A DNA stretch of 64,000 nucleotides from Capsulimonadaceae bacterium. GTDB lineage: Bacteria; Armatimonadota; Armatimonadia; Armatimonadales; Capsulimonadaceae. Below are positions 5,816 to 37,426 of the stretch, in pieces. Under the pieces are notes generated by a model. It did no database searches. It saw only the letters and a program-made list of their open reading frames with translations, and had not been told where the DNA came from. How positions within the stretch are numbered: position 1 is the first letter of the stretch; every line of letters begins with the position of its first letter. The DNA lies in contig OZ252240.1 in the NCBI GenBank assembly GCA_965249515.1, forward strand, positions 4,150,693 to 4,214,692, given 5' to 3'. Both the position numbers and the translations under genes were made by a program.

Positions 5816-5856
5816 GATTTTAATCCCATGCTTCTCCATCCCCATGCCTCTGCTTT

Positions 5857-7179: not shown

Positions 7180-7195
7180 AGGAGAATGTCTTTAG

Positions 7196-7225
7196 GAAAA
7201 AAGCAGGCGGCGTTCGCCGCCTGCT
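7196..7225 (-). terminator. rho-independent terminator downstream of pdxS
   Basis: AGCAGGCGGCG/CGCCGCCTGCT stem. The A-run on the plus strand gives a T-run on the minus strand. Confidence 0.6.
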
Positions 7226-7237
7226 GAAACGGAGCAG

Positions 7238-8143
7238 CTACCAGCCTCGGCTCGCCATCAGCTCTTCGCGCGGCAGGGTGCTGATATTGATGCCGACCAT
7301 CGGCTCGCCAATGTCGCGGGAGACTTCGGCCAAAATCTCCGGGTTGTCGTAATGCGTATTGGCATCCACAATCGCCTTCGCCCGGCGCTTCGGGTCGCCG
7401 GACTTGAAGATGCCCGATCCGACAAAGACCGTCTCGGCCCCGATCTGGCGCATCAGCGCAGCATCAGCGGGGGTAGCGATGCCGCCGGCGCTGAAATTCG
7501 GCACCGGCAGCTTGCCGGTGCGGTGGACTTCCAGGATCAGCTCGTAGGGTGCGCCCATGTTTTTGGCCTCGGTCATCAGCTCCTCAAGAGGCAGAATCTG
7601 AATGCGGCGGATGTCGCGCAGCAGTGTCCGCATATGGCGGACGGCCTCAACAACATTGCCCGAGCCGGCCTCGCCTTTGGTACGGATCAGGGCCGCGCCT
7701 TCGCCGATCCGGCGCAGGGCCTCGCCAAGATCGCGGCAGCCGCAGACGAACGGCACCTTGAAGTCGTGCTTGTCGATATGGAACATATCGTCGGCGGGGG
7801 TCAGCACTTCGGACTCGTCAATAAAGTCCACGCCAAGCGCCTGCAAGATCTGCGCTTCGGCGAAGTGTCCGATCCGCGCTTTCGCCATAACCGGGATTGT
7901 CACCACGTCCATGATCTCTTTGATCATCTTCGGGTCGGACATCCGGGCAACTCCCCCCTGGCGACGAATGTCTGCCGGGACACGCTCCAGGGCCATCACC
8001 GCGACCGCACCCGCTTCTTCGGCGATGATCGCCTGCTCGGGGTTGATGACGTCCATGATGACGCCGCCCTTCAGCATCTCGGCCAGACCCACTTTGGTCT
8101 GCCATGTTGACTTCTGCGCCGTCAATCTCTGCTCTTCCACCAT
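7238..8143 (-). CDS. pdxS: pyridoxal 5'-phosphate synthase lyase subunit
   Basis: [42 protein letters not shown]...[14 protein letters not shown]. Start set at MVEEQRL (8143). Confidence 0.95.
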
Positions 8144-13908: not shown

Positions 13909-18507
<4,599 letters not shown>

Positions 18508-18685
18508 TGCGGGAGCGGTTCCTCTTCTAAGTGACGGATTCGGGGTCTCAGCCTGATTGGCTCAAAGCCCGAATTGGGAGAGGATTGTAGCACAATGCAA
18601 GCCCTCCCGTCAATCGTTTTGGCGGCGCATTTTTCGGCGTCGTTGTTCGCCCGATTTATAGAGAGAATATGGGTAGAATACACGC

Positions 18686-21559: not shown

Positions 21560-23457
21560 ACCATCTCACCGTTGGCGTCGCCGGGCATATTGACCACGGC
21601 AAAACTGCGCTGGTGCGGGCGCTGACCGGCACCGAGACCGACCGGCTTAAAGAAGAGCAGGAGCGCGGCATAACCATCGTGCTCGGCTTCGCGCACTTGA
21701 CCCTGCCGAGCGGCAAGATTGACTTTGTAGATGTGCCCGGTCACGAGAAGTTCGTCAAGACGATGATCGCCGGTGCGACCGGCATTGACACGGCCCTGCT
21801 GGTGATCGCCGCCAACGAGCGCGTCAAGCCGCAGACGGTGGAGCATGTCGCGCTGATGGGTTTGTTGGGCGTCAAGCGTGGGATTGTCGCCGTCACGAAA
21901 AGCGATCTCGTCGCCGATCCCGCTGCAAGGGAGCATGTTTTGGATGACCTGCGCGGGTTTCTGGCAGGGACGTTTCTCGCCGATGCGCCATTGCTGTTCG
22001 TCTCAGCACAAATGGGCGAGGGCATCGCCGCGCTGCAAGACGCCCTGACAAAGCAGCTTGACACGGCGATTGCTCCCGCAGCGCAGTCTCGCTTTTCTCT
22101 GCCGGTGGACCGCGTCTTTACGCTGACCGGGCAGGGGACCGTCGTCACAGGAACGCTGCGCTCGGGTCCGATCCGCACCGGGCAGACCGTCGAAATCCTG
22201 CCCGGCGGGCGTCTGGCCGAAGTGCGCGGTTTGCAGGTGCATGGGCAGCCTATCGCAATCGCTCATCCCGGCGGACGCACAGCGGTCAACCTGCGCGGGA
22301 TCAAGAAAGAGGACATCGCGCACGGCGACACGCTGGCGACGCCCGGCACCCTGCGCCCGACGCGCATTCTCGATGCCGACCTGACCCTGCTGGCGTCCGC
22401 CGCCAAGCCGCTGAGGCGCGGCCAATCAGTGACGCTGCACTACGGAGCCGCCGAAGTCCCCGCCCGCGTTTATCCGCTCGGTATCGCCGAAATCGCGCCT
22501 GGTGAGCGAGCGTTTGTGCAGATGCGCCTCACCGAAGATGCCGTGCTGGCATGCGGCGAGCCGTTTGTCGTCCGCCAGCCATCGCCTGCTGAAACGCTCG
22601 GCGGCGGGCGTATTACCGACCCGTACCCGCAAAAGCATACGCAGGCCGACGCCGCCCTCCTGCGCCATATCGAGACTCTGGCCTCGGGCAGTCCTGCCGA
22701 GCGCCTTCTCGCCAAGCTGTCCGAAGCCGGCCCGGCAGGCCGCGACCCGGCGCAGCTTTTGGCGGATTTGGGCCTGCCCGCCGAAGCGCTCTCGCCCGCG
22801 CTGCCGATTGCCGTTTGCTCGCCGTTGCTTGTTCTCGACCAGGCTGTCTTCGACGTGCTGACAACCCAAATCGCCGACGCCGTGACGCAGTTCCACGCCA
22901 AGCACCCGACCCGGCGCGGGCTGCCGTCAGAAGAGCTGCGCCGCAGCCTGCCACCGGCGCTCAAACCCGCCGCTTATACCGCCCTGCTCCGCGCCCTGTC
23001 CGGCACCATCGAGACAGTAGACGGCCTCGTGCGGACGCCCGGCTACTCGCCCGAAGCCGCACTCTCTTCGATTGAGCGGGAGATCGCCCGCGAAATCGAG
23101 AGCCAGTTCCGAGAAGGCGGCCTGAAGCCGCCCGAACTCGATGCCGTCCTGAAACGCGATCGCCGCCGCAAGACGCTCTACTATTATTTAGTCGAGTCTG
23201 GGGCACTGATCCCCACCACTGACCGGACCAGCAACCGCACGGTCGTGTTCCATCGAACAGCGATAGACGCGCTGGGGCCGCTTCTACAAGCGGCTTTGAC
23301 CGAAAGCGACGGCGGCGGCCTGCGCGTCTCGGAACTCAACCAAGTTCTCGGTACCACCCGTAAGTTCTCCGTGCCGCTTTTAGAATACCTTGACAGCCTC
23401 GGCCTCACCCGCCGCGATGGCGACCTGCGCTTTTGGAAGGAAGACTCTTTCCCGTAG
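21556..23457 (+). CDS. selB: selenocysteine-specific translation elongation factor
   Basis: GHIDHGKTALVRALTG, DVPGHEKF, TKSD G-domain motifs. Long winged-helix C-terminus. ATGA overlap with selA. Confidence 0.93.
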   Translation: MNHLTVGVAGHIDHGKTALVRALTGTETDRLKEEQERGITIVLGFAHLTLPSGKIDFVDVPGHEKFVKTMIAGATGIDTALLVIAANERVKPQTVEHVALMGLLGVKRGIVAVTKSDLVADPAAREHVLDDLRGFLAGTFLADAPLLFVSAQMGEGIAALQDALTKQLDTAIAPAAQSRFSLPVDRVFTLTGQGTVVTGTLRSGPIRTGQTVEILPGGRLAEVRGLQVHGQPIAIAHPGGRTAVNLRGIKKEDIAHGDTLATPGTLRPTRILDADLTLLASAAKPLRRGQSVTLHYGAAEVPARVYPLGIAEIAPGERAFVQMRLTEDAVLACGEPFVVRQPSPAETLGGGRITDPYPQKHTQADAALLRHIETLASGSPAERLLAKLSEAGPAGRDPAQLLADLGLPAEALSPALPIAVCSPLLVLDQAVFDVLTTQIADAVTQFHAKHPTRRGLPSEELRRSLPPALKPAAYTALLRALSGTIETVDGLVRTPGYSPEAALSSIEREIAREIESQFREGGLKPPELDAVLKRDRRRKTLYYYLVESGALIPTTDRTSNRTVVFHRTAIDALGPLLQAALTESDGGGLRVSELNQVLGTTRKFSVPLLEYLDSLGLTRRDGDLRFWKEDSFP

Positions 23458-23517
23458 ACCGAACCAAAACCCGTCTTGCCTGCGTTTAACCACAAAATGA
23501 ACCGCAGGAGGTATCCT

Positions 23518-24210
23518 ATGCACAGCAAACGTCGGACACGGACCACGGCAGGCTTCACACTGATTGAATTGCTCGTTGCCCTGGCGATCCTCGCCATTAT
23601 CGCCGCGATCTTGTTTCCGGTCTTCGCCGGAGTGCGCGAACGAGGCCGCCGAACGACCTGCCAGAGCAACTTAAAGCAGATTGCCCTCGCAATGCAGCAG
23701 TATGTGCAGGACAACAATGGAACTTACCCGCCCAATAGCGATTGGGGGTACGCGCCCTACTCGTATTTGAAAAACATCGCGGTATTTCGCTGCTCGGATC
23801 ACCCACCAGACGTTGTCTTTGACCAGTTCACTACGGAGCCACCGATTGTCTCCGCAAATCAGCTTAAGATATTTGAGGGAGCCACTTCTCCTACGGATTA
23901 CTCGTACAACTCCATGCGGCTGTACGTATTTCAACACGCCTCAATGCATGGAACACAAGAAATGGTGCTTGCCACCCCTTCTACAATTTGGCTGAATGTA
24001 GATGCTGCCTTCGTCTCACCAGAAGGTGAATATAGTTATGGCCGATTCGCAACTCGTACCTCCTGCGGGCGCAAGTTCGGCGGAAGCACAATTCACTCTG
24101 GCGCGGGCAATTACTCTTATGTAGATGGTCATGTGAAGTGGCTGACGCCGGAAGAGGCAGGCGAAATCGAATGCGCGAACGGGCCTCTGCCTGCGCCGTT
24201 CAAGGATTGA
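23518..24210 (+). CDS. prepilin-type N-terminal cleavage/methylation domain protein, H-X9-DG (DUF1559-like)
   Basis: GFTLIELLVALAILAIIAAILFPVF, then QSNLKQIALAMQQY. C-terminal HSGAGNYSYVDGHVKW. GGAGG upstream of the ATG at 23518. Confidence 0.85.
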   Translation: MHSKRRTRTTAGFTLIELLVALAILAIIAAILFPVFAGVRERGRRTTCQSNLKQIALAMQQYVQDNNGTYPPNSDWGYAPYSYLKNIAVFRCSDHPPDVVFDQFTTEPPIVSANQLKIFEGATSPTDYSYNSMRLYVFQHASMHGTQEMVLATPSTIWLNVDAAFVSPEGEYSYGRFATRTSCGRKFGGSTIHSGAGNYSYVDGHVKWLTPEEAGEIECANGPLPAPFKD

Positions 24211-24218
24211 CTGAGGCA

Positions 24219-24336
24219 CCCTGGTCTGGAAGACCGGGTCTTTAAAAAGCATAATGTCCGCTTCGCGGACGCCGAATACGTCCCGGAGGGACATCCTGCA
24301 CTGTTAAAGCCCCGGTCTTCCAGACCGGGCCAGGGT
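24219..24336. repeat. palindromic hairpin cluster, family B
   Basis: CCCTGGTCTGGAAGACCGGG (24219-24238) pairs with CCCGGTCTTCCAGACCGGG (24311-24329). Inner hairpins GTCCGCttcGCGGAC (24256-24270) and GTCCCggaGGGAC (24280-24292). Confidence 0.85.
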
Positions 24337-24376
24337 AGCTTGACCGAAACCAACTGGAAAGGAGGTGATGACACTG

Positions 24377-25429
24377 ATGACTGATTTAGGAGTCGCGAAG
24401 CGACTGACGGAGATGGTTTCGGGCGCGGGTTGAGCGGCAAAACTTGGTCCGGGGGACCTAAATGCTGCGGTCAAAGACCTGTTCTCGAATGTTGCGCGTG
24501 ACCCGAACGTTCTCGTGGGCTTCGGCACGCTCGATGACGCCGGGGTGTATCGCCTGAACGCGCAAACCGCGCTGGTGCAGACGGTGGATTTTATCACGCC
24601 GGTTGTAGACGACCCGTTCGCTTTCGGCGAAATCGCGGTCGCCAACGCGCTTTCGGACGTCTACGCCATGGGCGGGGTCCCGGTCACTGCGCTAAATGTC
24701 ACCTGCTTCCCGTCGGGCACCGACCCGACGCTGCTGAACGCCATTTTGCGGGGCGGCCTCGCCCAGTGTCAGGCCGCAGGTGTTGCGCTCTTAGGGGGCC
24801 ACACGGTGGACGACCCGATGATCAAGTTTGGGCTGTCGGTCACGGGCACCGTGGACCCAAACGCGATTTGGACCAATGCTGGGGCGCAAATCGGCGACGC
24901 GCTGATACTCACCAAACCGCTCGGCATCGGGGTCATCACCACCGGCATCAAGCAGCAAAGGGCGAGCGCGGCGGCAGTGGAAGCGGCTCTGACTTCCATG
25001 CGGACCCTGAACCGGGCAGCGCGGGATGCAGCGGCGGAAGTCGGGCCGAATGCCTGCACCGATGTCACGGGCTTTGGCCTGACGGGCCATCTGTACCAAA
25101 TGCTGCGGGCATCGGGCCGGACAGCACATATCTACGCCAATCAAGTCCCGCTGCTGACCGGAGCTTTGGACCTGGCACGGGCAGGTGTCGGGCCGGGCGG
25201 GACGGAGCGCAACAAAAACTACTTTGGCGGCTTTGTATCGCTTGCGCCGGGTGTCGAAGCGGCTTTAATTGAACTGCTGTTCGACCCCCAGACCTCCGGG
25301 GGTTTGCTGCTGTCGGTCGCCGTGGATAAACGAGAAGCGATGCTGGCCGCGCTGACCGCGCACGGCGTCCGGGCGTCGGTCATCGGCGAGGTGACGGGGC
25401 CGTCGGCGGGGCGCGTCGAGGTATTCTAG
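24377..25429 (+). CDS. selD: selenide, water dikinase; selenocysteine-containing (UGA at 24431-24433 read as Sec)
   Basis: In frame with the track ORF at 24515. The upstream frame reads MTDLGVAKRLTEMVSGAG-U-AAKLGPGDL, matching the SelD active-site loop (E. coli RLTQ..HGAGCGCK). GGAGG at 24361-24365. Alternative ATG at 24368. Confidence 0.9.
24444..24461 (+). promoter_or_regulatory. SECIS-like hairpin downstream of the selD UGA
   Basis: GGTCC-GGG-GGACC (24446-24458) begins 15 nt after the U of UGA. Possible extension with a bulged T. Confidence 0.4.
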
Positions 25430-25432
25430 CGT

Positions 25433-25525
25433 GGAGGCGTTCGGGGTCTGGTGGCCCCCCTGGTCTTCAAAACCAGTGTCCCGCATTACGCGGGGGGTGG
25501 GTTCGATTCCCATCCGCTTCCGCCA
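25433..25525 (+). tRNA. selC: tRNA-Sec (anticodon UCA)
   Basis: 8-nt acceptor strands (GGAGGCGT / CCGCTTCC). 6-bp D stem with a 4-nt loop (GGGGTC-TGGT-GGCCCC). Anticodon arm CTGGT-CTTCAAA-ACCAG. Long variable arm CCCGC-ATTAC-GCGGG. 5-bp T stem with TTCGATT loop. G-CCA end. 93 nt. Confidence 0.92.
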
Positions 25526-25541
25526 CTTTCATCCAAACACT

Positions 25542-26375
25542 ATGTTCTCATCGGCAGCGACTAAAACAAGAACCGTCACGCGCCTGCGCGGCGGGCAATG
25601 GGCCGAGATTGACGACATGCTTGTCATCGAGGAGCCGCTGGAAATCCGCCTCGGTTCCGAGCGGTTCACCGTCACGATGCGAACCCCCGGCGATGACTTT
25701 GCCCTGACGCGCGGCCTCTTGCTGACCGAAGGCGTGATCGAGTCGAATGCAGACATCGGCCAGATCCGCTACTGCGACGAAGGCGAAGCCGCCGACACTG
25801 ACCTCCCGAACATTGTTACGGTGCACCTGAACAAACAGCCTGCGGCGGGCCGCCTCTGGCAGCGGACTCTTATGGCGGGCACAAGCTGCGGCCTTTGCGG
25901 CAAAGCGGCCTTGGACGCCGTCGCCATGCAGACCGACCCGCTGCCCCCGCCGACCACCAGCCTCCTCACCCCTGATATTCTGCTCGAACTGCCGCACACG
26001 CTGCGCCGCCGTCAGGAAGCGTTCCAAAGCACCGGCGGCCTGCACGCCGTCGGCCTGTTCACCGCGTCCGGCGACTGCCTCTGCGTTTATGAAGACATCG
26101 GACGCCACAATGCCACCGACAAAGCCATCGGCCACGGCGTCAAGCAAGGCTGGCTGCCCTGGGCCAACCCTGAGCCTCTGATTTTGCTAGTCAGCGGCCG
26201 TGCCTCGTTTGAGATCACCCAAAAAGCGCTGATGGCCCGCATCCCCGTCGTCTGCTCCGTCTCCGCCGCGTCTTCTCTCGCCGCAGACTTGGCAGAGCTA
26301 AACAATCAAACACTGGTCGGATTTCTGCGCGATACCGGCATGACTGTTTATACTGGCGGGGGGCGAGTGGTTTAA
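25542..26375 (+). CDS. fdhD: formate dehydrogenase accessory sulfurtransferase
   Basis: EEPLEIRL...TMRTPGDDFALTRGLLLTEGVI, SCGLCGK, GGLHA, GRHNATDKAIG, SGRASFEITQKA. Start moved to 25542; the track extension overlaps tRNA-Sec. Confidence 0.9.
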   Translation: MFSSAATKTRTVTRLRGGQWAEIDDMLVIEEPLEIRLGSERFTVTMRTPGDDFALTRGLLLTEGVIESNADIGQIRYCDEGEAADTDLPNIVTVHLNKQPAAGRLWQRTLMAGTSCGLCGKAALDAVAMQTDPLPPPTTSLLTPDILLELPHTLRRRQEAFQSTGGLHAVGLFTASGDCLCVYEDIGRHNATDKAIGHGVKQGWLPWANPEPLILLVSGRASFEITQKALMARIPVVCSVSAASSLAADLAELNNQTLVGFLRDTGMTVYTGGGRVV

Positions 26376-26933
26376 ATTTTTCAGCGGGCCGAACCGAAAC
26401 CATGCGCCTTACCGTTATAAGGCAGTATCATACGTTGGGGGTACTGCATGGATATCAAGAGTAAGCATCGGATTGGATTTACGTTGATTGAATTGCTGAT
26501 CGTAATCGCCATTGTCGGGGTCATTGCGGCAATTTTAATTCCGGCATTTTTGTCAGCACGGGAGCGCGGCCGGCGAACCGTTTGTCAAAGCAACTTGAGG
26601 CAGATGACGCTGGCAATCCAGCAGTATGTTCAAGACAATGGCACTTACCCGGTATACACGACATCAAACAATCATATTAACCCAGATGGTACAGGTGGAC
26701 CTGATGAATGGCAGCATTTGATCTTTCCTTACATAAGAACGCGGCAGGTGTTCTACTGTCCTTCTTTGCCTGCGGACGCGCCAATGATCGCGGACCCGAT
26801 CGCGAAGGATTTTGAGGAAGTAGGATATGTTTAACCTAAGTTGCGTTTCTGGTTTTTTGCGTTTGCAGGTTTAGGTGCCTGGCCGGTTTCCGTAAAGTGA
26901 AAGTACCACCCAACACTTCACAGGAGACCGACC

Positions 26934-27799
26934 ATGCATCCCTCTGTTCGACAAATCATCGCGATTTACTGCCTGTGCGACGATTTTCTTTCGGCCCGTG
27001 GCTACAAAGATGCCCGGCAAGCTAAACTGACCACGGCCCAGGTCATGACCGTGGCTTTAGTGGCCGCCGCCCTGTTTAACGGCAACCAGGAGAAAAGTCG
27101 CGTGTTCCTACGGGACCACGGCTACATCCGGCCCATGCTCTCCAAAGGCTGCTTGAACCGCCGTCTGCATGAAGTCCCGGAAGCGCTCTGGCAATCCCTG
27201 TTCGCGGTTGTGGCCGACGTTCACAAGCAAGGCAACGAAAGCCAGTGGTACGCGGTGGACAGCATGCCCGCCAGCGTCTGCGATAATTTTCGCATCTGCC
27301 GCAGCCGCTTGTACCCGCAAAAGCAGCACGGCAAAGCGTTTCGAGGCTACATCGCCTGCAAGAAACGCTTCTTCTACGGCCTGCGGGTGCATCTGGTGAC
27401 GACCACGGGCGGCCTGCCCGTCGAGGTCATGCTCGCACCGGGCAGCGAGGCAGACATTGCGGCGTTCCGGCGACTGCCGCTGGACCTGCCGCCAAAGGCC
27501 CGCATCTTCGCGGACGCAGGCTATCTGGACCAGCATGAAGAAGCGCTGCTTAAGGACGCCGATTTGCATTTAGTGGCCCAGCGGCGCAAAAACAGCAAAG
27601 AACCGCTGGCTCCGTGGGTGAGCTACCTTTGGCTCCGTGGGTGAGCTACCTTGCCCGCAAAGAGCGCAAGCGCATCGAGACGGTGTTCAGCCAGATCGCG
27701 GCAGCGTTCGGACGGACCCTTCATGCGGTCACGGCCCGAGGCTTCGAGCTAAAAGTCTTTCTGACCGTGCTGGCTTACAGTATGCTCGCAACAGCATAG
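26934..27799 (+). pseudogene. IS982-family transposase, frameshifted by a 23-bp tandem duplication
   Basis: Track ORFs 26934-27644 and 27614-27799 share ...LAPWVSYL. Deleting one 23-bp copy gives a single 280-aa frame. Confidence 0.85.
27607..27652. repeat. 23-bp perfect tandem duplication (TGGCTCCGTGGGTGAGCTACCTT x2)
   Basis: 27607-27629 equals 27630-27652. Confidence 0.97.
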
Positions 27800-28103: not shown

Positions 28104-29549
28104 CTAAATATGTGGAGTAGACGAACGCTCGTTTGCCAGTGCGGCCATTGCCGCGTAGTAGCCGCACATGCCGTGGACGCCGCCGCCGGGAGGCGTGGAC
28201 GACGAGCAAAGGTAGAGGCCGGGCACGGGTGTGGACCACGGTGTCCAGCGGGGGAGGGGACGGGTGAAGAGCTGCGCCCAGTCCTGAACACCGCCGTTGA
28301 TGTCGCCGCCGATGTAGTTGGCGGAGTAGCGCTCCAGCGCCGCCGGGTCCATGGCGTTTTTGGCGAGAATGCGGTCTTTGAACCCCGGCGCGAAGCGCTC
28401 GATTTGAGACTCGATACGCTCCGTCATATCCACGGTGCTGCCGTTGGGGACATGACAGTAGCCCCAGACCGTGTGCTTGCCCTTGGGGGCGCGGGTCGGG
28501 TCAAACAGACTTTGCTGGGCCAGCAGGATGTACGGCTTGTCGCAAATCTCGCCATTGGCGGCGGCGTGTTCCGAGGCAGTCAGCTCGGCGCGGGTGCCGC
28601 CGAGGTGAACCGTTCCCGCTTTGGCGACTTCGGGCGACTTCCAGGGGATCGGACCGTCGAGCGCCCAGTCAATCTTGAACGCGCCCATGCCGTAGCGGTA
28701 GCGACTGAGCTGCTCTTTGTAACCCGTCGGCAGCGTGTCCCCAGCAATACGCAAAAGCTGGCGCGGCGTGATGTCTCCGAACACCAGCTTCGATGGCGGC
28801 AGCTCGGCCAGGGTCTTGACTTCATGGCCGGTCTCGACTTCCCCGCCAAGCGACTTCAAATGCGACACTAAAGCGTCGGCAATGCCCTGCGAGCCGCCGC
28901 GCGGGAACGGCCAGCCGACCGCGTGGCCGGCCAGCCCGAGGGCCATGCCGAATGCACCGCTCGGGGACTGCGTGAGCGGCAGCATCGAGTGGGCCGCCAT
29001 GCCCGAAAAGAATCCTTTGGCGCGTCCGCTCGTGAACGAAAGCTCGGTCAGTGCTTGGGACGACAGCATCGCTTTGAGGCCGAAGCGGGCCAGGCCGAAC
29101 GGATAGCGGGCGAGTCTCAGCGGCTCGCGCAGTGTCACCGAAAGCTCATCCCAGTCCGGCACCAGCGGGGCCATCAGCTTGCGATAGTTGGCGGCATCCT
29201 TGCCGAGCGTCGCCGCCGTCGCTTCCACTGATTGATACAAGAGCGCCGGCGGGCTGTCATCGAAGGGGTGTGCCAGCGCCGCTTCCGGGTGAACCCATTC
29301 GAGGCCGTATTTCTCCAAGCCCAGTGTCTGGAAGAACGGCGAGCCGTACCCGAGAGGGTGAATGGCCGAGCCGACATCATGCTGGTAGCCCGGCAGGGTC
29401 AATTCTTTGGTCCGGCACCCGCCGCCGGGCGTATCGGCGGCCTCGACGACCAGCACTGAGCGGCCCTCTTGGGCCACTTTAATTGCCGCCGCCAATCCGT
29501 TCGGCCCCGCGCCGATCACCACGGCGTCATATTTGGTGTTCTTGCTCAA
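28104..29549 (-). CDS. phytoene-desaturase-family NAD(P)/FAD-dependent oxidoreductase
   Basis: YDAVVIGAGPNGLAAAIKVAQEGRSVLVVEAADTPGGGCRT Rossmann N-terminus. CrtI-like length. Confidence 0.85.
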   Translation of the reverse strand: MSKNTKYDAVVIGAGPNGLAAAIKVAQEGRSVLVVEAADTPGGGCRTKELTLPGYQHDVGSAIHPLGYGSPFFQTLGLEKYGLEWVHPEAALAHPFDDSPPALLYQSVEATAATLGKDAANYRKLMAPLVPDWDELSVTLREPLRLARYPFGLARFGLKAMLSSQALTELSFTSGRAKGFFSGMAAHSMLPLTQSPSGAFGMALGLAGHAVGWPFPRGGSQGIADALVSHLKSLGGEVETGHEVKTLAELPPSKLVFGDITPRQLLRIAGDTLPTGYKEQLSRYRYGMGAFKIDWALDGPIPWKSPEVAKAGTVHLGGTRAELTASEHAAANGEICDKPYILLAQQSLFDPTRAPKGKHTVWGYCHVPNGSTVDMTERIESQIERFAPGFKDRILAKNAMDPAALERYSANYIGGDINGGVQDWAQLFTRPLPRWTPWSTPVPGLYLCSSSTPPGGGVHGMCGYYAAMAALANERSSTPHI

Positions 29550-29566: not shown

Positions 29567-29806
29567 TTACGGTACCGGCAGACGCCGCTCAAACTTCAGC
29601 ATCTCGTTTTGCAAACGTAGCGCCATCATCTCGCGTTCTTTGGCTTCGTCGTTCTTGTTGCCGCGAACTTCATAAACGAGCTGCTGTAGAGCTGCCGTAA
29701 GAACCTTGAGATCTTTTTGCAGGTCCGTGATGTCGTCTGTGTTTTTCTTGGTGTTCTCACGCAGAAGCAAAAGTTCCTTGAGAGCATTGGCAATGTCACG
29801 AAACAT
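29567..29806 (-). CDS. small helical (coiled-coil-like) hypothetical protein, 79 aa
   Basis: AAGGTGGA RBS. Charged heptad-like sequence. AT-richer DNA. Confidence 0.5.
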   Translation of the reverse strand: MFRDIANALKELLLLRENTKKNTDDITDLQKDLKVLTAALQQLVYEVRGNKNDEAKEREMMALRLQNEMLKFERRLPVP

Positions 29807-29838
29807 TCAGTTCCACCTTAAACATTCAGTTCCACCTT
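29801..29838. repeat. 19-bp perfect tandem duplication (AAACATTCAGTTCCACCTT x2) at a gene boundary
   Basis: 29801-29819 equals 29820-29838. One copy carries the RBS and ATG of the 79-aa gene. The other encodes the last 6 codons and part of the stop of the 66-aa gene. Confidence 0.97.
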
Positions 29839-30018
29839 CAGCCGGTCCAATATCTCGCGCGTCTCCAAACGTAACCGAGCCGTTTCAACTTGACTTTTGT
29901 TTGTTTCTTCCGCAATCTGTCTTATCTCAGCAAATGTGCGAGCAATTTCCGCCTTGTAATAAGCCGTATTGTAAGTAACTTTGCTTGTGGTCTTCTCATT
30001 TCCTAGCATTTTATCCAT
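29818..30018 (-). CDS. small helical hypothetical protein, 66 aa
   Basis: ORF with charged helical composition, in the same strand run as the Uma2 genes. Confidence 0.5.
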   Translation of the reverse strand: MDKMLGNEKTTSKVTYNTAYYKAEIARTFAEIRQIAEETNKSQVETARLRLETREILDRLKVELNV

Positions 30019-30075
30019 ATCATTTTCCTCTCATCAGCATTGTAGCATATTTGGGGTGTCTGCATCAGGCGCGTT

Positions 30076-30675
30076 CTACTTCTCGACGGCTTCACGAACG
30101 CTGACGGCCTCGGGAAACGTGACCCTGTCGTACACTTCTGTCAGCAAGAGCGTGACGCCTAAAACAGTGATTGACCCGTCTAGCCCTTCGGCAAATGTGA
30201 ACTTCCAGGTGTCATCGTCCTGCCGGATATACTGCTCGACCTGCGGCGTGTCCTGCGAAACCAAGATGTACTCTTGCAGCGAATCAAGCCGCCGGTAACG
30301 CGCCCATTTTTCGCCCCGGTCGTAACGCTCGGTGGACGGTGACAGCACCTCAAAAATCACCGACGGATTGATCACGCTGTTTTTGTCGAAGGGGTTGATG
30401 TGCAGCTCCCCGCAGACGATGGTAACGTCCGGGTAAGTCTCAACATCAATCGGCATGATGCCGACACGCAGGTCGCTGTTGGAGACGCGGCACGGCTGAC
30501 CGCGCAGCAAGCTACGCATCTCACCGCCAATGTTGCTGGCAATGAAGCTGTGGTTGGGGCTGCCACCGGACATCGCGTAAATCCGGCCTGCAATAAACTC
30601 GCTCTTGTAGTCCGCCGCGTCCTCCAGCGCAGCATACTGCTCCATCGTACAATACGGTAAAGGTTGTGCTGACAT
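30076..30675 (-). CDS. Uma2 (DUF820) family PD-(D/E)xK-like endonuclease, copy B
   Basis: YKSEFIAGRIYAMSGG, YPDVTIVCGE, VIFEVLSPSTERYDRGEKWARY, EYILVSQ. Confidence 0.85.
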   Translation of the reverse strand: MSAQPLPYCTMEQYAALEDAADYKSEFIAGRIYAMSGGSPNHSFIASNIGGEMRSLLRGQPCRVSNSDLRVGIMPIDVETYPDVTIVCGELHINPFDKNSVINPSVIFEVLSPSTERYDRGEKWARYRRLDSLQEYILVSQDTPQVEQYIRQDDDTWKFTFAEGLDGSITVLGVTLLLTEVYDRVTFPEAVSVREAVEK

Positions 30676-30692
30676 GTCGATATGATGCCTCT

Positions 30693-31295
30693 CTATTCGT
30701 TATCGGCTTGTTCTCTTAGCGTCTCAGCTACTGGAAACGTAATCCTATCATAAACCTCAGCGAGGGGCAGCAGGACGCCGAGTATTGTCACCGCCGCGTC
30801 TAAGCCCTCAACTGCCATGTAGCTCCACAGGCCGCTTTCCTGCCGGATATACTGCTCGACTTGGGGCGTGTCCTGCGACACCAGAAGATATTCTTCAAGC
30901 GAGTCCAGCCGCCGGTAACGCGCCCACTTTTCGCCCCGGTCATAGGCTTCTGTGGATGGAGACAGCACTTCAAAGATCACCGCAGGATTGATTATGCTGT
31001 TTTTGTCGAAGGGATTGATACGCGGCTCGCCGCAGACAACCGTAACGTCCGGGTAGGTCTCCACATCCAGCGGCATGATTGCAACACGCAAGTCGCTGTT
31101 ATAAACCTGACACGGCCCGCGTTTAAAGAGGTTTCCAGCTTCACGAGTGATATTAGCGGCAATCGCGCTGTGCTTCGGAGTGCCGCCAGACATGGCGTAA
31201 ATGCGCCCAGCGATGAACTCGCTTTTGTACGCCGCGTCTTCTTCCAGCGCAGCGTACTGTTCCATCGTATAATATGGTAAAGGTTGTGCGCTCAT
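30693..31295 (-). CDS. Uma2 (DUF820) family PD-(D/E)xK-like endonuclease, copy A
   Basis: Same motifs as copy B. Roughly three-quarters identical to copy B by eye. Confidence 0.85.
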   Translation of the reverse strand: MSAQPLPYYTMEQYAALEEDAAYKSEFIAGRIYAMSGGTPKHSAIAANITREAGNLFKRGPCQVYNSDLRVAIMPLDVETYPDVTVVCGEPRINPFDKNSIINPAVIFEVLSPSTEAYDRGEKWARYRRLDSLEEYLLVSQDTPQVEQYIRQESGLWSYMAVEGLDAAVTILGVLLPLAEVYDRITFPVAETLREQADNE

Positions 31296-31759
31296 TGAAA
31301 TGCCTCCATTAAAATTCTCAAATACTCTTGCACAGAAGCAAATTGTATCCGGCGGTCTGCGTAACTTTCGTGGCTCATAACGACCAACTGAGGAGCAATA
31401 ATCTTGCCTTCAGCAACGGCATAGCCGACGAAGTCTCCATTCGGTACGCTGGCAAAGAACAAAAAATTTGCTAACCCCGCAAAAGCCGTTTCCAAACCAT
31501 CGTCTTGCGCCCGAAGTTCTTGATTTTCATGCTGAATTTCTGTTACTGTCCAAACGACTTGCATCTCACCGTCTTCTTCACCTATGCTATCGAAGAAAGA
31601 AGGATGAACCGCCACGCCGTCCACTTCCAGCAGCAAATCTCGTAATTCCAGTGGCAGAGTAACTTGCAGTGATTGTTCGAGGCGTAAGACAGCCTCTTTT
31701 GACGCGGGTTCACCGAAGAAGCAGGGCAATCCAAAACTCTCGAAAAACTCGCGCCACAT
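31292..31759 (-). CDS. SMI1/KNR4 (SUKH-1) family protein
   Basis: EAVLRLEQSLQVTLPLELRDLLLEVDGV is the typical SMI1/KNR4 N-terminal signature. ATGA overlap with Uma2 copy A. Start at MWREFF (31759) is preferred; the track start at 31924 would overlap the fdnG start. Confidence 0.7.
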   Translation of the reverse strand: MWREFFESFGLPCFFGEPASKEAVLRLEQSLQVTLPLELRDLLLEVDGVAVHPSFFDSIGEEDGEMQVVWTVTEIQHENQELRAQDDGLETAFAGLANFLFFASVPNGDFVGYAVAEGKIIAPQLVVMSHESYADRRIQFASVQEYLRILMEAFQ

Positions 31760-31889
31760 AATTTCTACATTCGAGGACGACCGCCGGAATTCCTGCGTGA
31801 TTGGCGGTGTGAAAACGGGGGTAGAACAGGGAACAAGAAACTCATTCTCCACGTATTTCACACTTCCATCACTTAGAGGTAAGACCCTT

Positions 31890-34800
31890 ATGTTCAACCT
31901 GCCCTTGTTCTCCAAGAGCGGCAAGCCGGACGCGAAAAAGCGCGAGGCGCAGCCGTTTAGCCGTCAAACGCTGACGAAGAATGCCCGGATTGATGGCGCG
32001 ACCGTGACCGAAAGTGTCTGCCCCTACTGCGCCGTCGGGTGCGGCCAGCAGATCTACACTAAGGGCGGCCAGATTATTGATATCGAGGGCAACCCGCACT
32101 CGCCCATCAACGAAGGTACGCTCTGCCCAAAAGGCGCGAATGTTTTCCAATTGGCGCGTAACCCCAATCGCGTGAAGAAGGTCCTCTACCGCGCCCCGTA
32201 TGCGACCGAGTGGGAAGAAAAGCCGCTCGACTGGGCGATGGAGCGGATCGCGCAGAAAGTGTTCGATGCCCGCGAGCGCGGCTGGACCGAGAAGGACGAC
32301 GACGGGCGAACGATCAGCGCGGTCCGCAATATCGGCACCCTCGGCGGAGCGACGCTCGACAACGAAGAAAATTACCTCATCAAAAAGCTCTTCACCGCCG
32401 GCCTCGGCGTCCTCTCAGTTGAGAACCAAGCCCGCATTTGACATTCTGCTTCCGTGCCCGGTCTGGGCGCGACATTCGGCCGCGGCGCGGCCACTTCCTA
32501 TCAGCAGGATCTTCAAAACAGCGACGCGATTCTCATTATGGGTTCCAACATGGCTGAGGCGCACCCGGTCGGCTTCCGCTGGCCGATGAAGGCCAAAGCG
32601 AACGGCGCAAAGCTCATCCATGTGGACCCGCGCTACACGCGCACGTCGGCAATGGCCGACCAGCACGTCCAGATTCGGGCCGGCTCGGATATCGCGTTTT
32701 TAGGCGCACTGGTGAACTACGTTCTCACCCATGAACGCTGGTTCAAAGAATATGTGCTCGCCTACTCGAACGCCTCGACAATTGTAGACCCGCAGTTCCA
32801 GGACACTGAAGCGCTCGACGGCTTATTCAGCGGCTACGATGCCGAGACGCGCTCCTACGACCCATCTGTAGGCCACTGGAGCTACAAGCAGCCGGAAGAT
32901 AGCGAGGGTGAGGAAGGCAGCGGCGACACGCAGGGCAAGATGGCCGCGAACTCTCACGGCCTGCACGGGCACGGCATCGAAGGCGGGGCCAGCACTCACA
33001 GTTCGCCGCGAGCCAATTCAACCACGGACAAGGCTGGCTATATTCAGCGCGACGAAACGCTGCAAGACCCAAACTGTGTCATGCAGCTTCTGCGTCGTCA
33101 CTATGAGCGCTACACGCCGCAAATGGCGGCGGACATCTGCGGCTGTACGCCTGAGCAGGTTATCCAAGTCGCGGAAACCCTGTGTGACAACTCAGGACGG
33201 GAGCGCACCAGCGCCATCTGCTACGCGGTCGGCTGGACCATGCACACGACGGGCGTACAGATTATCCGCACGGCGAGTATTCTCCAGACTCTGCTCGGCA
33301 ACATGGGCCGGCCCGGCGGCAGCATCATGGCCCTGCGCGGTCACGCCAGCATTCAAGGGTCTACGGACATTCCAACGCTCTATGACCTCCTGCCGGGTTA
33401 CCTGCCCCAGCCGACCGCCGACCCGACCCATGACACGCTGGCCGACTACGTCAAGTATGAAGGTCTGCCCACGGGATACTGGGTGCATTTCAAGGAGTTT
33501 ATGGTCAGCCTGCTCAAAGCCTACTACGGCGACGCGGCGACGAAAGACAACGACTTCCGCTACAACTGGCTGCCACGGCTGGACGATGATTACTCGATGA
33601 TCCTGGCGTTTCAGCGCATGGCGAAAGGTGATTTTGATGGCTACTTCCTGTTCGGACAAAACCCGGCGGCAGGCTCGGTCAACGCCAAAGTTGTCCGCGA
33701 GGGCCTGCGTAATTTGAAGTGGCTGGTGGTCGCCGACTGGTTCGAGACCGAAAGCGCCGTCTTCTGGAAGAACGACCCGACCGGGCCGCCCGCTACTGAC
33801 ATCGGCACCGAAGTCTTTTTCCTTCCGGCAGCGTCGTCTCCCGAGAAAGAAGGGACGCTGACAAACACGCAGCGGCTGATCCAGTGGCACGACAAAGCGA
33901 TTGACCCGCCGGGCGACTGCCGCTCCGATCTGTGGTTCCTCTACAATTTAGGCAAGCGGCTCAAAGCGCTGTACGCCGGCTCGACAGACCCAAAAGATCT
34001 GCCAATTCAGCACCTGACCTGGGACTACGACCAGGACGAGCCGGAACGACTGCCCGATGGTACGCTCAGCAGAATTGTCGGTGAACCTGATGCGCTGAAA
34101 GTCTTGCAGGAAATCAACGGCTGCCACGTCAACGAGATTGACCCGAAGACCGGCAAGCCCAAGCTGCTGTCGGGCTATTCCGAGTGCAAGGATGACGGCA
34201 CGACCGCCTGCGGCGGCTGGATTTACTCGGGGGTCACGCCGGCGCCGGAGGTCAACCGTGCCCGCGACCGGGTCCGCACCCCGGACAATCCGCTCGACCC
34301 GAATTGGGGCTACGCCTGGCCGAGCAACCGGCGCGTCCTGTATAACCGGGCGTCGGCTGACCCCGAAGGCAACCCGTGGTCCGAGCGCAAAAAGCTGATC
34401 TACTGGGACAAAGATGCCAAAAAATGGATGGGTAACGATGTCCCCGACTTTGAAGTAGGCAAAGACCCGTCGTACCGCGCACTCAAAGACGCGGTCGGCA
34501 TGGAAGCAATCGGCGGCGACCAGCCGTTTATCATGCACCCGGACGGCTTGGCCTGGCTGTTCGCGCCGGGCGGCACCAAAGACGCCCCGCTGCCGACCCA
34601 TTACGAGCCGGTCGAGTCGCCGGTTCGGAACCTGCTTTATTCTAAGACGCAGGACAACCCGACAACGCGCTACTTCGAAGGCCTGGCGGGCAACAAACTG
34701 GCCCGCTACCCGGAAAACGATTTCCCGGTGGTCGGCTGCACGTTCCGCCTGACCGAGCATTACCTGAGCGGCCCGATGTCCCGGTTCAATTCGTGGCTCA

Positions 34801-35249
34801 ACGAGCTGATGCCGGCCATGTTCATTGAAATCAGCCCGGAGCTTGCCGCCGCGCACGGCATCGAGCACGGCGGCTGGATGATCTGCGAGTCGGCGCGGGC
34901 TGCAATCGAGGCGCGGGCCATGGTCACGAAGCGCATCAAGCCGATGACCATTGACGGCAAAACGATCCACCAAGTCGGTGTCCCGTTCCAATGGGGCTTT
35001 GCCGGGGAAGTGGTCGGCAGCAGTGCCAACGACTTGACTTCACTCGTGGCCGACCCGAATGTCTCGATGCACGAGGCCAAAGTCTTCGCCTGCCGGGTCC
35101 GGGCCGGACGCCTGCCCGACCAGCCGAAGACGCCGACCAAGCCCGAGCACCGCTGGGCCAGCCGCGAGCCGGTTCCAAACACCGCCGCCGGCGCACAGCC
35201 TGAGGGCCATTTGGAGAAGTCATTGCGAAAGGACGGACCGGAGAAGTAA
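31890..35249 (+). CDS. fdnG: formate dehydrogenase catalytic subunit, selenocysteine-containing (UGA at 32439-32441)
   Basis: Track ORFs 31797-32441 and 32454-35249 are one frame: ...VENQARI-U-HSASVPGLGATFGRGA, compared with E. coli ...VDNQARV-U-HGPTVASLAPTFGRGA. CPYCAVGCG Fe-S motif. Colinear with FdnG to the C-terminus. Confidence 0.93.
32454..32470 (+). promoter_or_regulatory. bacterial SECIS hairpin of fdnG
   Basis: GUGCCC-GGUCU-GGGCGC. The GGUCU loop occupies +22 to +26 from the U of UGA, the same register as the E. coli fdhF SECIS (G23/U24) as recalled. Confidence 0.65.
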
Positions 35250-35383
35250 GAACCTACCCCCGCTCGTTCCTCACGACCCCTCCCTAAGAAGGAAGGGTAG
35301 GAATTACGCATGAAGCCTTCCGTATCTGTCTCTCACCCTTCCTTCTTAGGGAGGGGTCGTGAGGAACGAGCGGGGGTAGGTTC
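35250..35383. repeat. 134-bp palindromic element, family A, between fdnG and fdnH
   Basis: 48-nt arms at 35250-35297 and 35336-35383 are perfectly complementary. It starts at the base after the fdnG stop codon. Confidence 0.95.
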
Positions 35384-35406
35384 GCATTATCCTTGAAAGC
35401 AAAACC

Positions 35407-36276
35407 ATGATCCAGTTAAATATGCTTCGCGCGGAGGCGACGGCCAGCCTCAAAAATGCGTTCCCGCCCCAGCGCACCGAAGTCCCCGACGCCGGCCCAG
35501 ATGGGCAAGGGCAGATGGGCTTCTTCACCGACACCAGCCTGTGCATCGGCTGCAAAGCCTGCGAAGTGGCCTGCAAGCAGTGGAACCAGTTGCCGTCGGA
35601 CGGCTACAACTTTTCGGCGAAGTCCTATGACAATACCGAGCATCTTTCGGCGACCACCTGGCGGCACGTGGCGTTCCAGGAGCAAATCGGCGAGACCAGC
35701 AGCCGCTGGCTGATGATGAGCGATGTCTGCAAGCACTGCGTGGATGCCCCGTGCGTCCAGTCCTGCCCGACCGGATCGCTGATTTACAATGAATACGGCA
35801 ACGTCTATGTCCAGGCCGACATCTGCAACGGCTGCGGGTACTGCGTCTCGGCCTGCCCGTTCGGGGTCATCGCCCGGAGCGCCGAAGACGGGCACGCGCA
35901 CAAATGCACACTCTGCTACGACCGGCAAACGGTCGGCGAGACGCCCGCCTGTGCGAAGTCCTGCCCGACGGCGTCTATCCAGTTCGGCCCGGTTGATGAG
36001 CTGCGCGAGCATGCCCGCGAGCGGGTAGAAACACTCCGCGCCCAGGGCAACACGTCGGCATTTCTCTACGGGGCCGATGAAGAGTCGCTGCCGGGCTACG
36101 GCACGCTGAACTCGTTCTTTCTGCTCGAAGACCACCCAAACCGCTACAACCTGCCGGAAGCCCCGCCTCAGCCGCTGCACCAGCAGGGCAAGCGCTACGC
36201 GGCGAGCCTGCTGACGGGCCTCGCGCTCACGGCCCTGGCGGGTCTGCTGCTGTCGAAGGGGGCGACCAATGCCTGA
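35407..36276 (+). CDS. fdnH: formate dehydrogenase iron-sulfur subunit
   Basis: CIGCKACEVACKQWN, CKHCVDAPCVQSCP, CNGCGYCVSACP, CTLCYDR ferredoxin motifs. C-terminal TM helix. Confidence 0.92.
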   Translation: MIQLNMLRAEATASLKNAFPPQRTEVPDAGPDGQGQMGFFTDTSLCIGCKACEVACKQWNQLPSDGYNFSAKSYDNTEHLSATTWRHVAFQEQIGETSSRWLMMSDVCKHCVDAPCVQSCPTGSLIYNEYGNVYVQADICNGCGYCVSACPFGVIARSAEDGHAHKCTLCYDRQTVGETPACAKSCPTASIQFGPVDELREHARERVETLRAQGNTSAFLYGADEESLPGYGTLNSFFLLEDHPNRYNLPEAPPQPLHQQGKRYAASLLTGLALTALAGLLLSKGATNA

Positions 36277-37426
36277 TTTTGATGTCATGGGGGCAAGCGG
36301 AACGACCAGTGGCACCGAGACACGCGGACGCTGGGACAGCGCCCACGGAATCGCGCCCGATAAAAAAGCGTTCGACACGCTGCCGGACAAGCTCACCGAC
36401 TTCACGCCGAAGCAGAAACCTTTCACCGAGGGCTTTTCCGAAAGCGGCACGAACCGCAAGAAAAGCACCGTGGATAAAGACAACGGCGACGCGGCGTACT
36501 ATGACATCAGCCTCTTGCAGTCGCCGGTCTGGACCAAAGAAGTCGGCATCTATTTCTTTCTCGGCGGGCTGTCGTCGAGCGCCTATAGCATCGCCCGGCT
36601 GTCGGACCGCTTCGGACGCGGCAGCCTGCGGCCTGTCACGCAGTATGGAACACTCATCGCGGCGTTGGCCGCGCTGCCCTGCGCTCCGCTTCTGATCTGG
36701 GATTTGGGTGACCGGACGCGCTTCCACCATATGCTGCGTATTTGGAAGCCGAAGTCGCCGATGAACCTCGGAAGCTGGACTCTGACAATCTACACACTCA
36801 TGGGCGGGATTGCTGCCCTGCGCGAGTTTCTGCGTACCCTGCGGAAAGACGCGCCGCTGACCGGCGGCGCCAAAGCTTTGGACGAAACGGCGGGGGTGAT
36901 CGCTGACACTGCCGGCATCCCGCTCGGCCTGCTGCTGGCGGGCTATACCGGCATTCTGCTGTCCACGACTTCGACGCCGCTTTGGAGCCGCAACACCTGG
37001 ATTGGGACCCTGTTCAGCGCCTCTGCGGTCGGCTCCGGCGCAAGTGCGGTTAAGCTGGCTTTGGAAATAACCGGCAAATCCGAACACGCCGCCCATGCGC
37101 TCGGAAAAGTCGAGACGCTGGCACATTTGACCGAAGCAGTCGCCCACGCGGGCTTTTTGTCCGCTGCCGGGCCGCTGGCGAAACCCGTCACCGAGGGTAA
37201 GTACAAAAACGCTTATCTCGGCGGCGCGGTCGGCCTCGGAATCGTGCTGCCGGAGATTTTAAGCCGCCTGCCGGGGACGCCGAAGCAGAAGCGGGCGCTG
37301 TCCATTGCCGCCGGAGTGGCCGGACTTGTCGGCGGATACATCCTGCGGACAGTCTTTGTCGCTGCGGGCAAGCCATCCGCCGATGACCCGGATTTGGCGC
37401 GTCTTGCCACTGGCCCAAGAAATTGA
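36269..37426 (+). CDS. NrfD/PsrC-like polytopic membrane subunit
   Basis: Overlaps the fdnH stop. Multiple TM segments. WTKEVGIYFFLGGLSSSAY resembles the NrfD family. Not an FdnI-type cytochrome b. Confidence 0.7.
   Translation: MPDFDVMGASGTTSGTETRGRWDSAHGIAPDKKAFDTLPDKLTDFTPKQKPFTEGFSESGTNRKKSTVDKDNGDAAYYDISLLQSPVWTKEVGIYFFLGGLSSSAYSIARLSDRFGRGSLRPVTQYGTLIAALAALPCAPLLIWDLGDRTRFHHMLRIWKPKSPMNLGSWTLTIYTLMGGIAALREFLRTLRKDAPLTGGAKALDETAGVIADTAGIPLGLLLAGYTGILLSTTSTPLWSRNTWIGTLFSASAVGSGASAVKLALEITGKSEHAAHALGKVETLAHLTEAVAHAGFLSAAGPLAKPVTEGKYKNAYLGGAVGLGIVLPEILSRLPGTPKQKRALSIAAGVAGLVGGYILRTVFVAAGKPSADDPDLARLATGPRN

Follow-up and report, generated by a model that had tools for sequence, protein, structure and literature searches.

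We analyzed a 64,000-nucleotide (nt) stretch of a Capsulimonadaceae bacterium genome (contig OZ252240.1; referred to as the window) together with a comparison set of about 95 related loci. Our focus was a run of five intact minus-strand open reading frames (ORFs) between the selenocysteine formate dehydrogenase gene fdnG and a gene for a FAD-dependent oxidoreductase. The run encodes a SUKH protein, two Uma2 proteins (Uma2-A and Uma2-B) and two small helical proteins of 66 and 79 amino acids (aa). Based on our data, this run is probably not one system but a set of separable modules that accreted in a variable slot specific to the lineage. More specifically, we consider it likely to be a composite with three parts: a long-resident Uma2 slot in which two old alleles are found, a SUKH gene of sporadic occurrence, and a pair of coiled-coil genes that forms an independent unit.

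An initial annotation of this DNA had proposed a single toxin/immunity or defence cassette. Its five minus-strand genes and their spacings proved exact: along the run, a 4-nt ATGA overlap is followed by gaps of 17, 57 and 11 nt. The proposal of a single cassette did not survive the comparison that the annotation itself had suggested, since across 14 genomes with the slot and 81 loci with the small gene pair these families showed no conserved co-occurrence. The features discussed below are as follows.

31890..35249 (+): selenocysteine formate dehydrogenase alpha subunit gene fdnG, the divergent anchor, with an in-frame TGA at 32442-32444
31760..31889 (no strand): divergent intergenic/leader region from fdnG to the first cassette gene, with conserved blocks
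31292..31759 (-): SUKH/SMI1-KNR4 gene, 155 aa from the ATG at 31759; longest ORF 31292-31924
30693..31295 (-): Uma2-A, PD-(D/E)xK-type Uma2/DUF820 protein, 200 aa; Pfam Uma2, E = 2.9e-32
30076..30675 (-): Uma2-B, second Uma2 allele, 199 aa; Pfam Uma2, E = 1.3e-29
30039..30047 (-): extended -10-like element TGCTACAAT, putative promoter of the small-gene pair
29818..30018 (-): s66, 66-aa helical protein, first gene of the pair
29801..29838 (no strand): perfect 19-bp tandem duplication at the junction of the s66 stop and the s79 start (Tandem Repeats Finder: 2.0 copies, 100% match)
29567..29806 (-): s79, 79-aa helical protein, second gene of the pair
28104..29549 (-): FAD-dependent oxidoreductase (CrtI/amine-oxidase-like), the downstream anchor; Pfam NAD_binding_8 and Amino_oxidase

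Gene content of the slot in related genomes

We recovered the slot between fdnG and the FAD oxidoreductase gene from 13 other genomes (14 with the window), mostly metagenome-assembled genomes (MAGs) of the Capsulimonadaceae type, labelled Capsulimonadaceae or Armatimonadales. The flanks are 77-94% identical to the window in all 13 relatives. The FAD oxidoreductase is 78-92% identical across all syntenic relatives, and the two ORFs that make up fdnG (31890-32441 and 32454-35249) are 84-94% and 77-90% identical for the N-terminal and C-terminal parts, respectively. Pfam Molybdop_Fe4S4 was assigned to the N-terminal ORF, and the C-terminal gene of the relatives carries Molybdopterin and Molydop_binding.

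Between these anchors, the gene content varies. The complete five-gene set was found in no genome examined besides the window. SUKH is present in 3 of the 13 relatives (4 of 14 with the window) and an intact Uma2 gene in 11 of the 13. SUKH followed by two Uma2 genes occurs in the window only, and no relative has a tandem of Uma2 genes. One relative has SUKH with one Uma2 gene (L004), another has SUKH with a Uma2 gene split by an insertion sequence (IS; L006), and a third has SUKH without any Uma2 (L083). A single Uma2 gene without SUKH was found in L001, L002 (= L008), L003, L005, L007, L025, L084, L085, L086 and L087. At a more distant locus (L088), a 55%-identical Uma2 gene lies divergent from fdnG, followed by tsaD and an endonuclease V gene, and neither small gene is present.

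We further compared the base composition of the run with its surroundings, a check proposed in the initial annotation, and found it deviant. The GC content of the five ORFs is 0.42-0.57, compared with 0.61 for the window. At third codon positions, the GC content (GC3) is 0.455 for SUKH, 0.612 for Uma2-A, 0.730 for Uma2-B, 0.448 for the 66-aa gene and 0.588 for the 79-aa gene, that is, 0.45-0.73 against 0.77 in host genes (mean of host-like ORFs in the window 0.768, standard deviation 0.030). The Uma2-B value is near that of the host. In each relative checked, the GC3 of every cassette gene was below that of the adjacent oxidoreductase gene.

The nearest relative of the window also changes gene by gene. 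It is L086 for Uma2-A (83%), L025 for Uma2-B (84%) and L005 for the FAD oxidoreductase (92%); for the small proteins, it is L086 for the 66-aa protein (64%, with 34-46% elsewhere) and L087 for the 79-aa protein (86%, with 48-72% elsewhere). Uniformly similar flanks, a nearest relative that changes from gene to gene and the low cassette GC3 together point to old allelic lineages that may have been shuffled inside a conserved slot, a pattern that is typical of conflict genes and not proof of them.

Both Uma2 proteins scored far above the Pfam Uma2 cut-off of 27 bits (112 bits for Uma2-A and 103 bits for Uma2-B), with the domain covering residues 12-163; this profile search bore out the family assignment made initially. 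They are single-domain proteins of 199-200 aa in which Pfam identified no trafficking domain, and Uma2 aligned to the solved chain 9y1l (E = 3e-9). All 37 columns with at least 97% conservation among 113 homologues are identical in both copies, and the retained core positions include E26, P82-D83, E109 and K123. The initial annotation had named a lack of catalytic residues as a point against it; the near-invariant family residues are all kept in both copies. We infer that Uma2-A and Uma2-B are single-domain PD-(D/E)xK-type nucleases with intact catalytic-type residues. For the Uma2/DUF820 family, biochemical activity is not established (PMC3424549; PMC1274311).

The identity between Uma2-A and Uma2-B is 74%, close to the three-quarters estimated initially. 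Their differences are concentrated in residues 41-60 (12 of 20) and 141-200 (26 of 60), and the other 20-residue bins within residues 1-140 contain only 2-4 differences each. These locations match those given in the initial annotation, which had read them as a sign of diversifying specificity; that interpretation was not supported. Regions in which the two copies differ also vary across the whole Uma2 subfamily, with a mean conservation of 0.49 at the differing columns versus 0.80 at identical ones (p = 8e-16). Because the differences fall in these subfamily-wide variable regions, the pattern as aligned shows lower constraint, and diversifying selection is not demonstrated.

The two Uma2 copies are not recent duplicates but alleles of long standing, each with its own closest relatives, and purifying selection acts on them. 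In a neighbour-joining tree, they are not sisters, with a mutual identity of 73-74%. The nearest relatives of Uma2-A are 81-83% identical single copies in the same slot, without SUKH (L084, L085 and L086), and Uma2-A is also 82% identical to the protein P0002. The nearest relative of Uma2-B is likewise a single copy at the same slot, with 84% identity (L025/P0043). The synonymous divergence between the two copies is saturated (dS about 1.5), with an overall dN/dS of 0.12. Positive selection between the copies was considered and set aside as unassessable at this saturated dS. A look-up of Uma2-A itself returned no record.

We also scanned the five cassette proteins with PADLOC. Both Uma2 proteins matched the candidate PDC-S03 (E = 1e-24 and 4e-24), which is a single-gene candidate, and the SUKH protein weakly matched PDC-M40A (E = 0.003). 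A literature search found no paper that mentions PDC-S03 or PDC-M40. As to whether PDC-S03 lies in a defence island, its neighbours here are sel/fdh metabolic genes.

The SUKH protein scored 41.4 bits with Pfam SUKH_6 (cut-off 27) and 41 bits with SMI1_KNR4 (cut-off 25.4), with E about 3e-10 for SUKH_6/SMI1_KNR4. The family named initially was thus upheld, and the start codon had to be moved. Because the three homologues, with 57% (L004), 51% (L083) and 37% (L006) identity, all begin with MWREF, translation most likely starts at the ATG at 31759 (155 aa, MWREFF...) and not at the TTG at 31924. With this TTG, the gene would extend past the start of fdnG at 31890. The SUKH stop overlaps the Uma2-A start (ATGA, 31292-31295), giving a tightly coupled two-gene arrangement. 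A word-indexed search with the SUKH protein returned zero homologues; its relatives came from tblastn of fetched loci and one metagenome contig, for a total of four occurrences of the subfamily in all collections searched. A scan of IMG/VR for the SUKH subfamily was empty.

The leader 5' of SUKH is homologous to the leader 5' of Uma2 in SUKH-less genomes, with the blocks TTCTACCC...TTAATC...GCAGGAA common to SUKH-bearing and SUKH-less relatives. Therefore, SUKH was inserted, or lost, exactly between the shared leader and the Uma2 start codon. The SUKH gene would thus be a sporadic add-on placed directly before the Uma2 start codon, and Uma2 a long-term resident of the slot; the window carries two old Uma2 alleles next to each other. 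Transcription of SUKH, Uma2-A and Uma2-B as one unit probably begins at the conserved leader beside fdnG.

SUKH is known as a classic immunity partner of nuclease toxins, including those with a restriction-endonuclease fold, and is described either as providing self-immunity to an adjacent nuclease or as isolated copies that are proposed to counter non-self toxins (PMC3113570). Here, the SUKH protein would most likely be a cytoplasmic binding or immunity protein, the target of which may be an incoming nuclease toxin, or it may do no more than modulate Uma2 optionally. A role as the obligate antidote of Uma2 is unlikely because Uma2 is usually kept without SUKH, including in the closest relatives of Uma2-A. 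For both SUKH and Uma2, a conflict-related role is plausible.

Several further observations were made in the slots of the relatives. In L006 (3768-5282), the gene that splits Uma2 into 105-aa and 100-aa fragments encodes a DDE transposase, and SUKH and the small pair are intact. L004 (6693-7265 / 7082-7744) has neither the SUKH stop nor the Uma2 ATG of the window. Its SUKH ORF extends, in a different frame, into the region of Uma2, which would have to start at an ATG further upstream and overlap SUKH by about 180 nt. The cause may be an error in sequencing or assembly, or the junction may really have been rearranged. An optional fourth slot gene of 95-104 aa is present in L001 (6593-6892), L003 (7487-7774) and L085 (2203-2517). 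Its product is rich in Ala and Gly (membrane-like), ends with the C-terminal motif IKTLEIDELxVRRLxVxEL and is encoded by a gene that overlaps the Uma2 stop; it had no Pfam match, and the L085 copy had no PADLOC match. At the position of the 79-aa gene, L001 (7234-8187) carries an AT-rich ORF (GC 0.41) of 317 aa with no family assigned, another sign that the slot takes foreign cargo. In L087, the closest relative, an IS605 OrfB/TnpB-like gene (5824-7017) lies directly 3' of the FAD oxidoreductase gene, which shows further mobile-element activity around the slot.

The 66-aa/79-aa gene pair and the surrounding cluster

The two small proteins had been described initially as helical and without a recognisable family, and our searches agreed. 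When all members of both families were scanned against Pfam, NCBIfam and PADLOC, neither family was assigned, with only scattered generic coiled-coil matches, and the 79-aa profile retrieved only generic coiled coils from the PDB. A profile search with the 79-aa family matched 571 clusters (50% identity) at E<=1e-3; among the matches listed (150), family members are almost all stand-alone proteins of 62-126 aa. Alignments of the 79-aa family (A1 and A3) revealed a near-invariant C-terminal motif, ERExxALRLENE(L/M)LKFERRLP, and that of the 66-aa family (A2) the motif DQxEIxxLKxETR. The 66-aa family is less conserved (mean column identity 22%, 1 near-invariant column) than the 79-aa family (30%, 11 columns). 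No homology between the two families was detected by hhalign (probability 14%). A scan of IMG/VR for the 79-aa family was empty. Some proteins of 146-148 aa were considered as possible fusions of the two and rejected, as their N-termini are out-of-frame junk.

In a scan of one genome per species, the 79-aa family was found at 80 loci, with up to three per genome, in Armatimonadota (Capsulimonadaceae, Abditibacteriaceae), Acidobacteriota (mostly Pyrinomonadaceae/Blastocatellia) and Verrucomicrobiota. A 66-aa homologue lies immediately 5' of the 79-aa homologue on the same strand in 76 of 81 loci, with a spacing of -16 to +8 nt in the 49 measured pairs. A Uma2 gene was present within 5 kb of the pair in 18 of the 81 loci and absent in 63, and it is adjacent only in Capsulimonadaceae-type loci. 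Judged by this distribution, the pair is a module of its own, an undescribed family pair separable from Uma2.

Outside the Capsulimonadaceae-type slot, the pair lies in-line within housekeeping operons of other soil bacteria, 0-17 nt from its neighbours, in at least four contexts, of which the suf and gcv contexts are from Acidobacteriota. One is the suf operon, with the order sufC-pair-sufD(-Uma2-sufS), as in the Pyrinomonadaceae/Acidobacteriota loci L030, L032, L038, L042 and L077. Another is the glycine cleavage operon, with the order gcvT-gcvH-gcvPA-pair-gcvPB (for example, L044, L048, L057, L067 and L076). In further contexts, the pair follows an MTAP-like phosphorylase gene or precedes a carboxyltransferase gene. 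In the suf context, a different Uma2 gene stands between sufD and sufS, and a gene for an RlaP-type nucleotidyltransferase lies 5' of sufC.

Each operon context of the pair looks vertically inherited and not mobile. Direct or inverted repeats around the pair, which might indicate a mobile element or target-site duplication, were mostly no commoner than in shuffled pairings; the exception was direct repeats of at least 20 nt, which flank it at 3 of 48 loci. Co-variation in length between the 66-aa and 79-aa proteins is weak (rho = 0.31, p = 0.03, with non-independent loci). In the window, the 19-bp unit AAACATTCAGTTCCACCTT is present twice in tandem at 29801-29838, and both small ORFs are still intact. 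This duplication is missing in the closest relative (L087), in which the two small ORFs overlap by 11 nt; from this comparison, the duplication appears to have turned an ancestral 11-nt overlap into the 11-nt gap seen here.

AlphaFold modelled the 79-aa protein as one helix (residues 2-74, pLDDT 90) and the 66-aa protein as a helix at residues 18-63 (pLDDT 87). Because each protein is modelled as a single long helix, stability would call for a partner, and the two probably pair as a coiled coil, either as a hetero- or as a homo-oligomer.

We next consider the transcription of the pair. Of the 67 loci compared, 41 have a TAnAAT hexamer 22-30 nt before the start codon of the 66-aa gene; the extended form, TGnTAnAAT, stands there in 31, which represent three phyla. 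In the 5' regions of 182 conserved neighbouring genes, used as a control, TAnAAT was found 9 times and TGnTAnAAT not once (Fisher p about 1e-20, with loci that are not independent). Downstream of the element comes a short leader, which carries a ribosome-binding site of the GGAGG type. The sufC context is an exception, as the pair there directly follows the sufC stop and has no TGnTAnAAT-type element. In the window, TGCTACAAT lies in the 57-nt spacer between Uma2-B and the 66-aa gene, 21-29 nt before the 66-aa ORF, and is followed by a Shine-Dalgarno-like stretch, GAGAGGA. Two exact copies are present in the window, compared with 0.11 expected, and both are intergenic. The second copy (18584-18592, minus strand) lies about 77 nt 5' of a 1532-aa ORF (13909-18507). 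A generic scan of the locus for sigma-70 promoters and terminators gave nothing above the shuffled background.

Because this promoter-like motif precedes the small pair, we infer that the run is transcribed as two units. The second would consist of the 66-aa and 79-aa genes, an independent two-gene module with its own extended -10 promoter in the 57-nt spacer. Its transcription probably continues into the FAD oxidoreductase gene, which begins 17 nt beyond s79 on the same strand.

The run lies within a selenocysteine/formate dehydrogenase cluster that spans 20162-26375 and 31890-37426. Its gene order is selA, selB, a pilin-like gene, a selD-like gene, tRNA-Sec, fdhD, an IS element, the FAD oxidoreductase gene and the cassette; on the divergent side, fdnG with its in-frame TGA is followed by genes for an Fe-S subunit and an NrfD-like subunit. 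The tRNA-Sec gene (25433-25521) overlaps the start of the longest fdhD ORF, and a low-GC gene of the prepilin type (N_methyl/DUF1559; 23476-24210) splits selB from selD. Between fdhD and the FAD oxidoreductase gene, a DDE transposase is encoded in two overlapping ORFs (26934-27644 and 27614-27799), which may be a frameshifted or programmed-frameshift IS; it adjoins a patch of low GC (about 26250-27000). Neither a large repeat protein nor a secretion protein was found beside the locus in the window.

Evaluation of alternative explanations

We compared the accretion of separable modules with several other explanations of the run. That all five genes form one toxin/immunity or anti-phage cassette, in which two Uma2 nucleases of diverged specificity are under the control of SUKH, of the small helical proteins or of both, is highly improbable. 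Such a cassette would fit the common strand, the tiny gaps, the deviant composition, the PADLOC matches of Uma2 (PDC-S03) and, weakly, of SUKH (PDC-M40A, E = 0.003), and the allelic mosaicism that is frequent in conflict loci. However, the set is unique to the window and each component was found without the others. The small pair mostly resides in housekeeping operons far from Uma2, usually with its own promoter-like element, the Uma2 copies are old and under purifying selection, and IMG/VR holds no homologue of the 79-aa protein or of the SUKH subfamily. A narrower version, in which SUKH and Uma2-A were acquired as a unit, a toxin-antitoxin (TA)-like pair with SUKH as the neutralising partner and Uma2-B and the small genes as bystanders, is unlikely, though less so than the five-gene cassette. 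The ATGA start/stop overlap, the GC3 of both genes (0.455 and 0.612) below that of Uma2-B (0.730), the classic partnership of SUKH with nuclease toxins (PMC3113570) and the position of SUKH in L004, again directly upstream of Uma2, all favor it, as does the finding that SUKH outlives a broken (L006) or missing (L083) Uma2 in the manner of an orphaned antidote. On the other hand, the closest relatives of Uma2-A (L084, L085 and L086; 81-83%) lack SUKH, as do at least nine Uma2-bearing genomes in all, which is unexpected for an unprotected toxin, and Uma2 is a single-domain protein of 200 aa in which a trafficking domain is absent. Moreover, described SUKH-linked toxins with a restriction-endonuclease fold carry another signature, GE-D-ExK-Q (PMC3113570), and four finds of the SUKH subfamily are too few for linkage. 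It is also quite improbable that the cassette genes are neutral hitch-hikers or decaying remnants, functionless at present. Variable presence among genomes, the IS-disrupted Uma2 in L006 and a low GC3 consistent with weak expression would be expected of remnants; against this, all five ORFs are intact, Uma2 has a dN/dS of 0.12 with the conserved residues all retained, the 79-aa family, with its 571 clusters and three phyla, retains 11 near-invariant columns at the C-terminus, and the order and spacing of the pair are kept in 76 of 81 loci.

Another explanation concerns the pair itself. The 66-aa and 79-aa genes could form a new self-contained module, in which an extended -10 promoter and a short leader precede two coiled-coil proteins with coupled translation, that acts as an addiction or TA-like system or as an inserted internal promoter with a regulator of the downstream genes. 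The pair would then have settled in-line in essential operons (suf and gcv) and in the Uma2 slot in three phyla, and its effector surface would be the near-invariant ...LRLENELLKFERRLP tail in which the 79-aa protein ends. We regard this functional proposal as tentative and, on balance, unlikely. Certain observations also weigh against the accretion of modules that we prefer. That SUKH and Uma2-A overlap at an ATGA and are both low in GC3 would fit a functional pair that was acquired together, and SUKH beside a broken or absent Uma2 resembles an orphaned antidote. The low GC3 of the cassette genes in all relatives is unexplained by long vertical residence and hints at ongoing exchange or some shared property. 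The putative promoter of the pair is a sequence motif only, and the slot comparisons all come from MAGs of one family, so that the 14 loci are not independent samples.

The accretion of modules is mostly of corrective value, as it indicates that tight packing and suggestive names such as SUKH and nuclease are insufficient for a toxin/immunity call, and that synteny dismantles the cassette. SUKH and Uma2 are known families, and what is novel is the undescribed 66-aa/79-aa module. A Uma2 subfamily that is fixed by a formate dehydrogenase gene and yet allelically mosaic provides a tractable entry to the function of a very large nuclease family, and the natural series of SUKH presence and absence before Uma2 allows a direct test of the immunity hypothesis. 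In addition, a widespread and unannotated coiled-coil pair, unusually placed between sufC and sufD or between gcvPA and gcvPB, could influence the expression of core metabolism.

Comparison with known systems

Both Uma2 genes of the window match the Uma2/DUF820/COG4636 family (PF05685; PD-(D/E)xK fold of the TT1808 type, PDB 1wdj, 3ot2 and 9y1l) and keep its core residues. As described for Uma2/DUF820 genes (PMC3424549, PMC4963859), the copies are multi-allelic and occupy conserved contexts beside metabolic operons. Unlike the family at large, they belong to a distinct subfamily fixed by the selenocysteine formate dehydrogenase gene in Capsulimonadaceae-type genomes, and the window has two old alleles in tandem.

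The SUKH gene resembles those of the SUKH immunity proteins (Zhang, Iyer and Aravind 2011, PMC3113570) in encoding a small cytoplasmic protein beside a gene of the restriction-endonuclease fold, and its lineage-sporadic occurrence is like that of supernumerary or isolated SUKH genes (PMC3113570). It differs from SUKH in polymorphic toxin systems in that there is no adjacent large secreted toxin with a C-terminal toxin domain, SUKH lies upstream and not downstream of the nuclease gene, and tandem SUKH arrays are absent. Nor is there a conserved linkage, as the neighbouring nuclease is usually found without SUKH. Compared with type II TA systems, SUKH and Uma2-A share the coupled operon but break the rule that a toxin never occurs without its antitoxin (L084, L085 and L086).

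The 66-aa/79-aa pair is itself like a type II TA system in having small adjacent genes with tight spacing, its own promoter-like element, several copies and varied contexts, and in that the first gene product (66 aa) is much more variable than the second (79 aa). In contrast to such systems, both proteins are modelled as single long helices, with no DNA-binding or nuclease/kinase-type domain.

The closest published parallel, by analogy of arrangement, is the hoxEFUYH hydrogenase operon of Synechocystis, in which DUF820 genes and type II TA modules are embedded (Kopfmann et al. 2016, PMC4963859). In both cases, an operon for a redox enzyme has, within it or next to it and in the same direction, a Uma2/DUF820 gene and a small module of two genes, and the suf and gcv loci of Acidobacteriota are alike. 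Unlike in Synechocystis, the 66-aa/79-aa module has no recognisable toxin or antitoxin fold and represents a new family pair that is apparently stably inherited within each operon context.

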